Positions 3,748 to 36,012 of a DNA stretch of 64,000 nucleotides are shown piece after piece. Every line of letters begins with the position of its first letter. The stretch's first letter is position 1. The notes under the pieces are model-generated. The model searched no databases. It saw nothing but the letters and a program-made list of their open reading frames with translations, and had not been told where the DNA came from. Source of the DNA: Eledone cirrhosa (lineage: Eukaryota); contig OZ024756.1 of assembly GCA_964016885.1 (NCBI GenBank), forward strand, positions 27,156,001-27,220,000, written 5' to 3'. The position numbers and the translations under genes are program-made.

Positions 3748-4220
3748 AAACGGAAAAAATGAAACGAAATTTCATTTCCCACTCTTAGTACGGCTGTTAC
3801 TTAAATATAAGTATGTACACGTACATACATATATGTTTGTTTACAAACACACCGAGCATTGTAATAAATGTTCAGTAAATCCATACGTACATATATATAT
3901 GTGTGCATGTATGTATATATATATATACATACTACTGTACGTCTGTATACATATATGTATGTACGTGTACATACTTATATTTAAATAACAGCCGTACTAA
4001 GAGTGGGAAATGAAATTTCGTTTCATTTTTTCCGTTTATCGTTTTTGATACACCCGGCCGATTTACCCACTCGATATGCAAATTGGGCTACTCAGCCGTT
4101 AATATGCATAAGGTAAGTATATACGTTCAACAATTCTGGCAGGAAGGTATACGTTGCTGATGATAGCTAATAATCTTGAAACTAGTACAGCGTTCCTTTG
4201 TCAGTGTTGAACAAACGAGC
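3748..4220 (+). mobile_element. Hammerhead-bearing foldback element, family shared with 35378-36012
   Basis: Inverted arms 3748-3835 / ~3950-4038; shared segments with 35625-36010. Confidence 0.7.
4152..4192 (+). ncRNA. Minimal type I hammerhead ribozyme
   Basis: cgttg-CTGATGA-tagctaataatctt-GAAAC-ta-GTA-cagcg; palindromic ACTAGT stem III. Confidence 0.65.
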
Positions 4221-5875
4221 AACGATATTCCTACTGCAGTAGTTGCGCAATTTTCCATTGTACTCTATTACGCGCTTTTACTGTGTATCGTACACCCATT
4301 GCAGGGTGTACTAAATACATTATTTATAGAGCAACGCTGCGTTCTTTGGGCTTCAATAATGATTTCTACTATAAACACAAGACCAGTAATTTGAGGGCAG
4401 GGGAAAGTCTATTACATCGACCCCAGTACATTACTGGTGCTTTATTTTATCGACCCCGTAAGGATGAAAGGCAAAGTTAACCTCGGTGGGATTTGAACTC
4501 AGACTGTAAAGGGACGTAACTATGCTAGAAAGCATGGCGTCCAACCCTCTACCGATATTGCCAACATAATAAAAGCTAAATGGCAAGGGCCGTAACTCTA
4601 TGCTGCAAAGCATGGTGTCTGACTCTCTACCGATACTGCCAATCGCCTGTCCTCTTTGGGCTTCAATAATAACACACATACATTCACATAAGCCCACACA
4701 AAAACACACACACACACACATATGCGCACACACACGTATGCACGCACATATACATATAGAGAAAGACTGGTTTAGACCAGTTTAGACTAGTATAAACATT
4801 GTTCAGATTAGTAATCGATACTTAAGAAAGCAGAGTGTATAGAAATAGGTAAAATCTTGACCGCAGCGCCAAGTGTGTGTATGTGTGTATGTATGTATGT
4901 GTATATATATATATATATATATATATATATATATATATATATATATATATATATATATATATATATATATACACATATATGCCTACACACACATATATAT
5001 ATATATACATATGTATATATATATATACACACACATATATACACATACATGCATATATACATACGCATATACATACACTTATACACACACATATATATAT
5101 ACATACACATATACATACATATACATCTACATACATATACACACACACATATATATATATATATATATATATGTATATATATATATATATACTTTTTTTT
5201 CTTTTTTCTTTTTATTTATTTATTATTATTATTATTTTTTTTTTCTTTCTCCTCGTGCAATGGCCATACTCGATAACGAGGGGGTAGCCATCATCATATA
5301 TATATATATATATATATACATATATATATATATATATATATATATATATATATACATATATATATATACATATAGAGCCAATGAGTTGTTAGAAATGAAG
5401 GTTAGAAATAAAAGAAGAGAGAGTTACATAGTATTGGGTCGTCAAGTATGAAATTTGTAAAAAAAAAACAAAAACCATATGTCTCTCTACAAATTTCATA
5501 GTTGACGACCCATCATTTATATTTCTTTGCAGCTTCGCACATAATGTTGTCTTCGTTTTTTTTTTTTTTTAAATCTTTCTCTGTTTAAAATTTATATAAT
5601 TTATAATAGTTAATATCAAGCAATAGCAGAGACAAGAATAGAATATACAACAACAACAACAATACATTAGTAACAACTGTACAAACGATATTATAAACGT
5701 AAGAAAAACAACAATGACAATAATAATAATAAAAAAAAATGAAAAAAAAAAATAATATATGTGAAAATAGAAAATACAAAAAAAAAATACAAAAAATACA
5801 AAAAAAAAATAATACAAAAATAATACAAATACAAAAAAAAACAAAACAATAGAAGACAAATCCGAAGTATCTTAC

Positions 5876-5985
5876 ATATTGCGATTGGTCTCGTTCTGAA
5901 TCTTTCGAGCCAACATATTCATAGACAAAGCAGATATTAGGATGGTCCAAGACTGAATAGTTGTTACCAACATCAACGAACAGAG
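5876..5985 (-). CDS. ITPR: ITPR-like exon (last found): ALFVDVGNNYSVLDHPNICFVYEYVGSKDSERDQSQY
   Basis: ggtacag / gtaaga; phase 1 in matches previous exon; 110 nt. Confidence 0.87.
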
Positions 5986-6174
5986 CTGTACCGGAGAAAA
6001 GAATAGAATAGAATAGAATAGAACCTAACGTAGAAGATGGACGTTAATCGATAATGATGATGGTGGTTATGATGATGCTGGTTATGATGATGATATATAA
6101 ATAAATAAATAAATATATATATATATATATATACAACCCGCCCGTCCCCTCAATCTATCTTATTTCTCATTCTT

Positions 6175-6210
6175 TCTTCTGATGAAGGACTAGCGTCCGA
6201 AACGTTAAGA
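6175..6210 (+). ncRNA. Minimal type I hammerhead ribozyme
   Basis: tctt-CTGATGA-a-ggac(tagc)gtcc-GAAAC-GTT-aaga; palindromic AACGTT. Confidence 0.75.
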
Positions 6211-6467
6211 CCCTCATCCTGCGTTAACTTAATATATCCCTTCCATATACTGTACCGATTGTGCTGTTATTTTTGTTTACCTTTTACATATATATATATA
6301 TATATATATATATATATATATATATATATATATATATGGTGAGTAATATTAAATATTACTCAGTTACAAGTATGAATATAGCTTGATGTAATATATCAAG
6401 TATAATACAGAGCTGAATGTTCCTGAAATAAAGTTTAGATCCTATATTTGTATTTAACTCTTGTAAT

Positions 6468-6514
6468 AACTCTGAAGAATCCATTTTTGTGCTAGGATGA
6501 AACGGTCGTTAGTT
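6468..6514 (+). ncRNA. Minimal type I hammerhead ribozyme
   Basis: aact-CTGAAGA-atcc(12 nt)ggat-GAAAC-ggtc-GTT-agtt. Confidence 0.7.
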
Positions 6515-6935
6515 TTTAAATGTTTGAAACATTAAATACTCTTTGATTACGGGGTCGATAAAATAAAGTACCAGTAATACACTGGATTGCTGGCCTTGTG
6601 CCAAAAGTAGAAACAATTATTTACATTGTGTGTATATATATATATACATACACAATGTAAATAATTGTTTCTATTTTATATATATATATATTGATATAGA
6701 TACAGTAAAAAATTGTTTAGACCACCACTCGATGCTTGGGGTAGTAGAGTATAGTTATATGAAAGAGTTGGGACCCCAACAGCTGAGCTCTTGCCGTTTC
6801 AATGGCTAGTTCCTGGTCTGGAACTAGATGTTGAAACGGCAAGAGCTCAGCCGCCGGTGCCCCAACTCTTTCATGTGTGTGTGCATTAACATATCGATAG
6901 ACAAGGGTGTTATTCCAAGGATACCTGAAACTTAC

Positions 6936-34082: not shown

Positions 34083-34163
34083 CACTTCTCCTTCTGACTT
34101 CACTTTGTATCTGGGCAAAATACGGAACTGTGCATTCTTGGCGTTGAACTCATTTAATGAAAC
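34083..34163 (-). CDS. ITPR: ITPR-like exon: VSLNEFNAKNAQFRILPRYKVKSEGEV
   Basis: ctttcag / gtatgt; like 'WFYIQPFYKLRSIGD'; 81 nt. Confidence 0.9.
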
Positions 34164-34604
34164 CTGAAAGTAAAATAAAATGTGGTGACGATATATTTGT
34201 TTTGTAGCATTTTTAAAATAAAATTGTGTGTTGAAACATATTTTGTTATATTTGGGAAGGGTGATGTTGTCCTAATATTGTCAATAATTAGGACAATTGT
34301 TTCTACTTTTGGCACAAGGCCAGCAATTACCCAGTACATTACTGGTACTTTATTTTATCATAGACCTCGTAAGGATGAAAGGCAAAGTTAACCTCGGCGG
34401 GATTTGAACTCAAATTGTAAAGGGCCGTAACTATGCTGCAAAGCATGGCCTCGGACCCTCTACCGATACTCCCAATCCAACGCCTTTGTCAATAATAATA
34501 ATAATGATTGTTTCTACTTTTGGTACAAGGCCAGCAATTACCAAGTGCATTACTGGTACTTTATTTTATTATAGACCCCCGTAAGGATGAAAGGTAATAC
34601 GTAC

Positions 34605-34682
34605 CATCATATTGTTCTTGTCATGCTGGCTTGTCTGTGTAGTACTCATATGCAAGTATTTGCTGGTGAATAGATGTTTGAG
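34605..34682 (-). CDS. ITPR: ITPR-like exon: LKHLFTSKYLHMSTTQTSQHDKNNMM
   Basis: catttcag / gtacgt; MIR motif like 'LLHLKSNKYL'; 78 nt. Confidence 0.9.
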
Positions 34683-34858
34683 CTGAAATGCAGAATTAGA
34701 GGAGAAATTATAAAGAACAAAGTAAATATATTTACAAATAAATATGTTTTGAAACAGCGAGCGAGTTTGAAATTAGAAATAGAAGCTTTCGCCGTATTTA
34801 GTATGAGTACACCTATTTCAGCGAAGAGTTGACAGGTCTAAGAATATATATATATATA

Positions 34859-35370
34859 CTAGCTGTATTACCCGCGCCTTGCTGCGTTTCACACATTTTT
34901 TTTTGTGTAAGAAAATGATGATTGATTTTAAATCAGTGATGTAATTTATGGAGAAAAACTCTGCATTTCAATATTACTCAATGTAAAATGTAATGCATGA
35001 AAAATTAGAAAACATTATTTTTTTGTAATATATCAAATAAAAATTACATTATTAAATCTTATTCTTATGTTCTTTCTTGTAAATAATTTTTTTCAAAATA
35101 TCAATTCAAAACTTTAGTGAATAGGCATCATATCTTGTCATTTACCTATGGTTTAAATTTCATATAAATCGAAGGGAAAAAAAACTTTCAGTGGGGGTTT
35201 TCAGCGGGGGGTTTGTGGCCAGGGGAACCCTTTGATTAAAATGACATATACTTATCCAAGTACCCTGGGTAATGTAGTTTCAGCATGTATATGGTTATGG
35301 GGGTCTATCTCCAAAACTATAGGAGGAGTTCGTGAACAAACAAACAAACAGACAGGAATACAACTTTATA
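34859..35370 (-). mobile_element. Non-autonomous Helitron-like element
   Basis: Minus 3' end GC-rich hairpin then ctag|t; (TTTG)/(CTGT) tract near the other end. Confidence 0.5.
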
Positions 35371-35377
35371 TATATAT

Positions 35378-36012
35378 GTATACGTACATACATATATGTA
35401 TACAGACGTACAGTAGTATGTATATATATACACACATGCATACATATATATATATATATATGAACGTATTGGTTTACCGAACATTTATTATAATGCTAGG
35501 TTTGTTTGTTTGTAAACAAACAAACAGTCCGAATTACGCCGTACAGTGTTTAGGCAACCACGTCACCTTTTTGTTCAACACTGACACAGGAACGATCTAC
35601 TAGTTTCAACCTTATTAGCTATCGTTGATATGCATAAGGAAAGTATATACTTTCAGACGGTCAACCATCTGGCAGGAAGGTATACGATGCTGACGATAGC
35701 TAATAAGCTTGAAACTAGTACATCGTTCCTGTGTCAGTGTTGAACAAAAAGGTGACGTGGTTGCCTAAACACTGTACGGCGTAATTCGGGCTGTTTGTTT
35801 GTTTACAAACAAACAAACCGAGCATTATAATAAATGTTCGGTAAACCGATACGTGCATGTATATATGTATGCATGTATGTATGTATATATATACATACTA
35901 CTGTACGTCTGTATACATATATGTATGTACGTATACATACATACATACTTACATTTAAGTAAGTGCCGTACTAAGAGTGAGAAATGAAATTTAGTTTCAT
36001 TCTATTCCATTT
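35378..36012 (+). mobile_element. Hammerhead-bearing foldback element
   Basis: Inverted arms ~35378-35625 / 35692-35937; hammerhead at 35685. Confidence 0.7.
35685..35725 (+). ncRNA. Minimal type I hammerhead ribozyme
   Basis: cgatg-CTGACGA-t-agct(aata)agct-t-GAAAC-ta-GTA-catcg; perfect stems I and II. Confidence 0.78.

Follow-up and report, generated by a model that had tools for sequence, protein, structure and literature searches.

Two hammerhead-bearing inserts in the 64-kb window (the whole stretch of octopus DNA that was analysed), A and B, are copies of a closed, non-coding, high-copy unit of 428 to 449 nt. The unit does not represent a new class of element. On balance, we regard it as a retrozyme-like unit with a predicted hammerhead ribozyme, probably inserted by the reverse transcriptase (RT)-endonuclease of an autonomous Penelope-like element (PLE) that copies an uncleaved head-to-tail RNA. 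The first-pass annotation had set retrozyme and PLE pseudo-LTR against each other as alternatives. This opposition dissolved, since the inserts bear the PLE signature: their 3' ends are fixed and lie at (TA)n, one 5'-truncated arm is inverted, and the tail is confined to one side. The two names thus apply to one object. The inverted arms, (TA)n ends and one-sided tail had been passed over in that annotation.

Copy A (3746..4226) is composed as follows.

3700..3747, no strand: (TA)n run at the left end, the likely target
3746..3834, reverse: inverted arm, consisting of the tail and about 19 nt of segment X; the arm's 3' end coincides with the fixed outer start site
3835..3969, forward: segment X, 5'-truncated, with hairpins and a TA-rich stem
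3970..4039, forward: tail, bounded by two inferred RT start sites (inner and outer), with a hairpin at its end
4040..4096, forward: spacer from tail to Y, closing the unit; bridged in X1, X4 and X6 contigs and X21 reads
4097..4151, forward: segment Y, with the 5' side of the extended stem I
4152..4192, forward: minimal type I hammerhead motif (core 4157-4163, GAAA 4178-4181, predicted cut after 4187)
4193..4226, forward: 3' side of the extended stem I and the first 11 nt of Z, to the right end of the copy

Copy B (35367..36023) and its neighbouring exon have these parts.

35367..35376, no strand: (TA)5 at the left end, a likely target remnant
35377..35623, reverse: inverted arm with truncated hammerhead (lacking the core start), Z and X, and no tail
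35623..35684, forward: segment Y, 5'-truncated
35685..35725, forward: complete minimal type I hammerhead motif, predicted cut after 35720
35726..35795, forward: 3' side of the extended stem I and segment Z (35749-35795, 47 nt); Z follows the hammerhead in all four runs
35796..35939, forward: segment X
35940..36011, forward: tail of about 70 nt, on the right arm only
36012..36023, no strand: (TA)6 at the right end
36040-36090, reverse: ITPR-like exon, its matched end 16 bp from the (TA)6

The part orders read in the first-pass annotation were recovered in both copies. Copy A runs X - spacer - Y - hammerhead and continues with 11 nt of Z to about 4226. Copy B runs Y - hammerhead - X, with the previously unnamed 47-nt Z between the last two. 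Segment X showed 85.8% identity between the copies over 219 columns (E 2e-69), and the Y-hammerhead portion 86.5% over 126 columns (E 5e-38), in swapped order relative to X. One insert sits in a calcium-channel gene, within an intron, and the same is likely for its counterpart. An intron model was set aside; the splice-donor-like word in Y of copy A is missing from copy B and from about half of the X1 depth. Past about 4230 the depth falls to one contig (9.73), and on this ground the sequence beyond 4226 was rejected as part of the element.

The closure of the unit was established with runs X1, X4, X6 and X21, leaving out the small-share runs X7-X20. Run X1 is possibly the sample behind the window itself. 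X4 and X6, with just 4 and 5 low-depth contigs, may represent relatives or carry-over DNA, so they were not counted as other species. Contigs and raw reads crossed every junction of the loop X-tail-spacer-Y-hammerhead-Z-X in all four runs, and the unit is therefore closed. The tail-spacer junction was bridged by X1 contigs 1-4, X4 record 10, X6 record 15 and about 4,000 X21 reads of many alleles. After the hammerhead, loose ends entered the Z of copy B in X1, X21, X4 and X6, and X4 record 9 carried the hammerhead, then 133 nt, then segment X. The hammerhead-to-hammerhead length of about 430 nt proposed from the letters alone agrees with the reconstructions, which gave 428 nt (copy A with the Z of B) or 449 nt (copy B with the spacer of A). 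The unit has a GC content of 0.35 and was high-copy in the run data, and the three reading frames that overlap it had no Pfam match. X21 read ends at 4014, 4081 and 4084 fell on AATT words and were taken as library cut sites.

A type I hammerhead descriptor matched 16 window loci, whereas 100 shuffles gave 0.09 on average (maximum 1). Copy B was among the 16, with a stem I of 5 bp, a stem II of 3 bp on a U.U pair, and a palindromic, loop-less stem III. Copy A escaped the descriptor, as its stem II is just 2 pairs long. This stem is broken at 4174 by a rare change, as more than 99% of the X1 depth has G there, and the family majority in the X1, X4, X6 and X21 data restores it. The variation of stem I with pairing kept, described earlier, was also present; at one pair, copy B has A-U where copy A has U.G. 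Among the variants listed at a frequency of at least 5%, none fell in the conserved core letters; they occurred at a free core position, in loop II and at one stem I pair. Rfam gave no hammerhead match on the window at the gathering threshold or at E<=10, and its miRNA-family matches lay on TA-rich hairpins with scores far under gathering and were discarded. A fixed-length hammerhead pattern recovered neither the A nor the B motif, and pattern scans of metagenome contigs, viral contigs and prokaryote genomes gave no matches. The plant-type LTR retrozyme, defined by a type III hammerhead in LTRs, PBS, PPT and a 4-bp target duplication, does not describe the unit, which has type I topology and no direct LTR pair.

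The insertion anatomy carries the link to PLEs. Both copies consist of two overlapping, oppositely oriented, 5'-truncated arms joined by a microhomology of 3-4 nt. In copy A the inverted arm (3746-3834) matches 3951-4039 at 88 of 89 positions, and the arms meet via 3 nt, the junction being read in sequence. In copy B the inverted arm (35367-35623) and 35695-35947 share 240 matches with 13 mismatches, the arms are joined by 3-4 nt, and the whole forms a 580-bp palindrome. Opposite-strand joins made up 10 of the 15 joints listed, at differing partner positions. Three of the four outer ends of A and B adjoin TA runs, compared with a background of only about 2.7% of positions across the window. 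Two 3' end positions are fixed about 70 nt apart, and the outer one is common to A, B and 60 X1 contigs, whose match to the reference stops at 4039 and gives way to an (AT)n consensus. The first-pass annotation had looked to scattered copy starts as support for circularity; across A, B and the X1 contigs the 5' ends do vary, but the 3' ends are fixed. Partial tandems, with read-through past the 3' end into the next unit, were seen in copy A and in the bridging contigs and reads. Clean target duplications were inseparable from the TA runs at the inserts.

The same two-arm layout recurred in five other inserts in the window, belonging to three other hammerhead families and chosen by self-inverted BLAST matches among the 16 motif loci. 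Nine of their ten outer ends lay at TA runs or no more than about 10 nt away. The tail is about 70 nt in the present family and 80-87 nt in four of these neighbours. The accessible part of PMC8557442 lists as PLE hallmarks a (TA)n bias, partial tandems, a tail on one side and a 5'-truncated copy in inverted orientation; the tail length given there is 30-40 bp and thus shorter than here. PLEs make up 6.83% of Octopus vulgaris, and a (TA)n-targeting Hydra-clade PLE is on record for O. bimaculoides. An RT or GIY-YIG Pfam domain was absent from 109 window frames (108 of 133, filtered, plus one). Short motifs diagnostic of the family were not found in the consensus files of Craig 2021, in which line breaks may mask matches.

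These features suggest a sequence of events. A partial-tandem or multimeric source copy would be transcribed beyond one unit, and the PLE protein would nick both strands at a (TA)n site. Each nick would then prime internal reverse transcription, one from the outer site (giving an arm with tail) and the other from the inner site (giving an arm without), and the two truncated cDNAs would be joined at their 5' ends. With internal starts on an RNA exceeding one unit, a cDNA started in a downstream unit would read back over the hammerhead and the preceding tail, and the permuted order of copy A could arise without a circle. Biochemical work, as far as the accessible text of PMC11167929 reports it, points to compatible chemistry: a purified PLE protein cleaved AT-rich DNA, extended both strands and used two internal start sites that define the tail, on an uncleaved RNA template. 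Several observations count against this PLE model. No autonomous partner was found in the window frames or the Craig 2021 files, no tandem two-hammerhead source locus was seen in the window or the listed records, the right end of copy A is atypical (at 4226 it is at neither fixed site, and only ATAT adjoins it in place of a TA run), and the tail exceeds the published length.

The template was proposed in the first-pass annotation to be a circular or multimeric RNA. Its being longer than one linear monomer is borne out, in that each copy continues through the predicted cleavage site and copy A through the fixed 3' start site as well. As to its form, an uncleaved tandem transcript is the probable template and a circle the possible but less probable one; DNA alone does not distinguish them. 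No record among those listed for X1, X4, X6 and X21, whose contigs are short, spans two hammerheads, and the 64-kb window holds no two head-to-tail hammerhead units. The forward arms measure 392 and 390 nt, neither longer than one unit.

In a circular version, which we consider tentatively, the same PLE machinery would act on a circular RNA: dimeric hammerheads would cut the tandem, a host ligase would close monomers of 430-450 nt, and reverse transcription would start internally. Such a model was put forward in PMC4209133 and in the accessible part of PMC7229834, which also describes coral, mussel and axolotl retrozymes accumulating as circles. The closed unit and the unvaried core letters are consistent with it. 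So is the fold: as a circle the unit scored a z of -5.3 relative to 25 shuffles, or -3.3 once the TA-rich hairpin was left out; stems I and II of the hammerhead were free to form (pair probabilities of 0.47-0.78 and 0.94-0.99, respectively), and self-pairing of stem III came to -5.4 kcal/mol. However, a linear RNP template would also be expected to fold strongly, and the forward arms stay within one unit. The ribozyme is of the minimal type, which PMC4209133 describes as lying 100-700 bp apart on opposite strands and cleaving weakly, and cutting is predicted to require dimerisation of the hammerhead or assistance from protein. For the one PLE studied in vitro, cleavage could be dispensed with, and RNA-seq reads had no ends at the cut site (PMC11167929, accessible part). 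The linear tandem is preferred over the circle because of this in vitro study and the weak type of ribozyme, while the sequence here directly favours neither. That a viroid-sized circular RNA of 430-450 nt in an octopod serves as the template of a PLE RT and has left on the order of 100,000 genomic imprints is a doubtful proposition. If true, it would offer a direct test of the 2014 proposal that tandem and permuted PLE copies come from ribozyme-made circles.

It is unlikely that a long ORF-bearing PLE gave rise to most copies as truncated 3' ends, with the permutation of copy A due to a template jump and the short closed unit a minor side lineage. Copy B alone, like the neighbours, does resemble an ordinary truncated PLE end, and the tail-spacer junction of copy A coincides with the fixed outer 3' end. 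But this junction occurs in 92 X1 contigs covering 4046, in the multi-allele X21 reads, and in X4 and X6, and its recurrence across contigs, reads and alleles indicates that it was inherited and did not arise by a one-off jump. The X1 depth is lower on the spacer than on the tail, and a second upstream context may exist among 404 loose ends beyond those listed; among those listed, none placed another sequence 5' of the spacer or Y. At 4123-4140, where copy A merely differs from the family, the depth falls just as far as on the spacer, so the spacer dip is no measure of spacer-carrying copies, and an estimate that one copy in five reads through was discarded. Copy B is palindromic over 580 bp and some MITEs typically target TA sites, but a DNA-level palindromic repeat (MITE-like or fold-back) or a later rearrangement, with the hammerhead as passenger, is very improbable given that arm length and extent differ between copies, inversion points vary, only one arm has a tail, this asymmetry recurs in three unrelated hammerhead families, and fixed terminal inverted repeats are absent.

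The preferred PLE reading has consequences beyond this locus. PLEs have been proposed as the mobilisers of retrozymes (PMC7229834), a view backed by homology and co-occurrence (bioRxiv 10.64898/2026.07.22.740005). Insertion anatomy is absent from the accessible parts of both studies as support for this link, and the octopus family supplies it, being a retrozyme-like closed unit that bears the PLE insertion signature in full. Its copies are very numerous, so a single assembly would allow start sites, inversion points and multimers to be counted, and one RNA experiment on this family could address the choice between circle and tandem. The results also suggest that part of the unclassified short octopus repeats are PLE derivatives. 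A literature search, whose scope did not extend to Repbase, Dfam and the O. vulgaris repeat library, returned no paper describing this family.

Among known systems, the endonuclease-bearing PLEs of the Hydra clade (Craig et al. 2021, PMC8557442, accessible parts) share the (TA)n targets, the inverted 5'-truncated arm, the one-sided tail and a hammerhead near the 3' end. Several of their entries in File S2 have, by eye, a similar hammerhead layout, with U.U at the base of stem II and an ACU..AGU stem III. The octopus unit differs in its lack of an ORF, its tail of about 70 nt against 30-40, and its loop-less stem III; Hydra-1_Obim gave no match to it by eye or motif search. Since the Neptune and Poseidon hammerheads were left out of the comparison, the Hydra-clade link is a lead only. 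PAc, the Poseidon element of Anolis carolinensis (Frangieh et al. 2024, PMC11167929, in the part accessible), has two internal RT start sites 3' of the hammerhead, an AT-rich target and extension of both strands, and steps of this type would generate the insert anatomy of the octopus unit. PAc is autonomous and protein-coding, however, and its starts lie about 85-90 nt past the cut site, compared with about 220 and 290 nt here. The MRC1-type, putatively non-autonomous Chlamys elements, as described in accessible sections of PMC8557442, are likewise ORF-less PLE derivatives, with pLTRs and head-to-tail copies, but they belong to a green alga and show 3' similarity to autonomous partners, and most Chlamys elements lack hammerheads.

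The metazoan non-LTR retrozymes (Cervera and de la Pena 2020, PMC7229834, again from its accessible part) resemble the octopus unit in being non-coding, structured units of 150-450 nt with a GC content of about 35%, a type I hammerhead and a short palindromic stem III, and in both cases a PLE mobiliser is proposed. They form head-to-tail dimers to multimers and their circular RNAs have been demonstrated, whereas the two octopus copies are dispersed, of sub-unit length, inverted-paired and known here from DNA. Li, Clavereau and Pollet (2026, bioRxiv 10.64898/2026.07.22.740005) reached, in the accessible portion of their preprint, the same conclusion that retrozymes are non-autonomous PLE derivatives, and also found dispersed monomers; their vertebrate retrozymes are homologous to PLE pLTRs, with in vitro cleavage in one of nine dimers. 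Their argument draws on co-occurrence and pLTR homology, mainly in vertebrates, while the link in the octopus unit is insertion anatomy in a mollusc, and no pLTR homology to a partner turned up in the window frames or the Craig 2021 files.

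Self-BLAST recovered two loci of the hammerhead family in the window, copy A (~3746-4226) and copy B (~35367-36023), with X and Y-hammerhead swapped in order between them. Copy B read Y, hammerhead, Z, X, tail, while copy A read X, tail, spacer, Y, hammerhead and the start of Z; these are consecutive segments of one closed unit. The permuted order described in the first-pass annotation was thus reproduced. Its ~430-nt hammerhead-to-hammerhead monomer was also borne out, with a closed length of 428 or 449 nt, depending on the backbone copy, and junctions bridged in public sequencing runs. 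Four runs were aligned to window 3835-4345, with 3835-3936 skipped as repeat: X1, which may be the window's source sample, X4 and X6, with contigs too few to count as other species, and X21. The tail-spacer junction was spanned by X1 contigs 1-4, X4 record 10 (3945-4160) and X6 record 15 (3952-4101), and was crossed by ~4,000 X21 reads of several alleles. In all four runs, loose ends past the hammerhead continued into the Z of copy B; in X4 record 9, 133 letters separated the hammerhead from the X that followed. At 4039, 60 X1 contigs departed from the reference with an (AT)n consensus. These departures and the bridged junctions indicated that both behaviours, stopping at a fixed point at (TA)n and reading on into the following unit, belong to the family. 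No record among those listed for the four runs held two hammerheads. An ATG-opened frame in the tail (4010-4102) meets a stop at 4046-4048 in copy A; common family letters abolish this stop and would yield ~30 codons over tail and spacer. The frame may have arisen by chance or be left over from an ORF.

Summed X1 depth was 0.2-2.4 million over 3925-4230 and 9.73 further on. This drop places the end of the element near 4226, with unique flank beyond. The depth ratio, which is not itself a copy number, suggests a family of ~10^5 copies, consistent with two loci in 64 kb. Shortly downstream of copy A lies a SINE-like insert (4345-4671) with an 18-bp target duplication (4345-4362 and 4654-4671), which we take to be an octopus SINE family.

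In copy B, all core letters of the hammerhead are present; stem I spans 5 bp and is prolonged by a long extension, stem II has 3 bp resting on a U.U pair, and stem III is palindromic and loop-less. As first noticed, stem I varies yet keeps pairing: one pair is A-U in copy B and U.G in copy A, and the alternative letters were frequent at both sides in reads (phase between sides not given). Stem II of copy A is broken at 4174, where the pairing letter made up >99% of X1 depth. A type I descriptor found 16 hammerhead loci in the window, copy B included, vs 0.09 in shuffles, and 11 of them are antisense to the host gene. An Rfam search of the window detected no hammerhead; this minimal form probably falls outside its models.

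Further features of the window
2150, 3333, 6179, 6472, 30641, 30669, 31138, 31889, 47301, 51718, 52451, 53905, 55141, 55301, 63528: 15 further type I hammerhead motifs, several families
2017-2270, 30535-30855, 51658-51849, 52232-52556, 55037-55486: five inserts from three additional hammerhead families; arms inverted, tail one-sided, ends at (TA)n
3615-3699, 49759-49950, 53710-53830: another palindromic family, (TA)n-flanked
13534-14700 and 59308-60700: minisatellites, 25-nt and 42-nt units
41256-41610 and 57188-57542: inverted pair, 355 nt, 99% identical, 15.6 kb apart

The descriptor missed a hammerhead-like motif at 54150-54185 (minus strand), within a 187-codon frame (53986-54546) that had no Pfam match and is possibly a decayed PLE (Penelope-like element) 3' end.

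The window is microsatellite-rich animal DNA. An exon at 26578-26739 encodes a sequence 91% identical to an Octopus sinensis inositol trisphosphate receptor-like (ITPR-like) protein. The gene is on the minus strand, its exons reaching from 52950 or higher to 5873, which makes an octopod the likely host. Exon matches 36090-36040 and 34685-34602 flank the intron that holds copy B. Copy A is located past the final match of the window and is probably also intronic, the protein match being incomplete. Copy B adjoins the minus-strand exon 36040-36090, about 16-28 nt from the splice donor, placing a ~250-bp inverted repeat within the pre-mRNA. This could affect splicing or serve as a substrate for A-to-I editing, a process known in cephalopods. 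An Rfam tRNA-like match (62695-62766, minus strand, 34.5 bits) is probably a SINE head.

Both copies consist of two oppositely oriented arms, absent from the first-pass annotation. In copy A, 3746-3834 mirrors 3951-4039 (88/89 identical); in copy B, 35367-35623 mirrors 35695-35947 (240 matches, 13 mismatches). Since the arm sequences overlap, we infer two copying events rather than one cDNA with an inverted piece. The 5' ends of the arms meet at the junction with 3-4 shared letters. The left arm of copy A and the right arm of copy B end at an identical position adjoining (TA)n, and the left arm of copy B stops ~70 nt sooner, likewise adjoining (TA)n. The right end of copy A coincides with neither of the two fixed sites. 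Among the joints listed from the runs, 10 of 15 were opposite-strand joins. One side of five of these ten lay within 4 nt of 3991 (reference 3990-3993), where tail and Z are predicted to base-pair; the cluster is possibly an RT stall site, or possibly a detection limit from a nearby library cut site.

The five inserts of the other families, which have the same layout, were selected among the 16 motif loci by self-inverted matches, and their one-sided extension was 80-87 nt in four and ~55 nt in one. Two of them (2017-2270 and 51658-51849) carry a short word also seen, by eye, near the Hydra-2_Amil 3' end. No hammerhead was detected in the three palindromic-family copies, one of which shares a TA run with copy A, so that one microsatellite was hit by two elements.

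In the available text of Craig et al. (PMC8557442), PLEs are characterised by partial tandems, by a copy that is inverted and 5'-truncated, by a tail on one end and by a bias towards (TA)n. According to the accessible sections of Frangieh et al. (PMC11167929), a PLE protein, once purified, nicks AT-rich DNA and extends both strands; it has two internal RNA start sites whose interval equals the tail, and hammerhead cleavage is dispensable. Nicking, two-strand extension and internal starts of this kind would yield exactly copy B, and would yield copy A provided that the RNA continued into a second unit.

Because the predicted cut site is crossed by the forward arm of copy A and by both arms of copy B, a linear monomer released by cleavage is excluded as template. 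To this extent the circular or multimeric RNA first proposed is supported, though a circle is not singled out: an uncleaved tandem transcript would serve too, and the arms are compatible with either. We lean modestly towards the tandem transcript, because the predicted ribozyme is of a weak, dimer-dependent type, as described in the part of PMC4209133 available, and the studied PLE uses uncleaved RNA. One in nine Xenopus dimers was cleaved, according to the preprint text at hand (bioRxiv 10.64898/2026.07.22.740005). A ligated circle is a more tentative candidate; for PLE tandems, this model had been put forward by 2014 (PMC4209133). In its favor, the circularised unit is predicted to fold well (z -5.3, or -3.3 without the TA hairpin) while leaving the hammerhead stems free, conserved core letters are free of variants among those listed from the runs, and such circles accumulate in three other animals (PMC7229834, available excerpt).

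Judged from its sequence, the element appears to work like a non-autonomous PLE, five of six tested features of which were found. For the sixth, homology to an autonomous partner, neither Pfam on window frames nor a motif search of the Craig 2021 files returned any. Non-LTR retrozymes are matched as well in size, composition and ribozyme. The retrozyme-like reading of the first-pass annotation is partly supported, but not its opposition to PLE pseudo-LTRs. In its available part, the same 2026 preprint argues that retrozymes and non-autonomous PLEs are the same. No description of this hammerhead family was found in the literature, curated repeat libraries lying outside that comparison, and the available text of an O. 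vulgaris repeat paper (PMC13282606) does not mention ribozymes. By eye, the hammerhead resembles motifs of the (TA)n-targeting Hydra clade of PLEs, present in Octopus, which serves as a lead only. Published PLE tails are shorter than the ~70-nt tail of this family, and about half the length of those in the five inserts.
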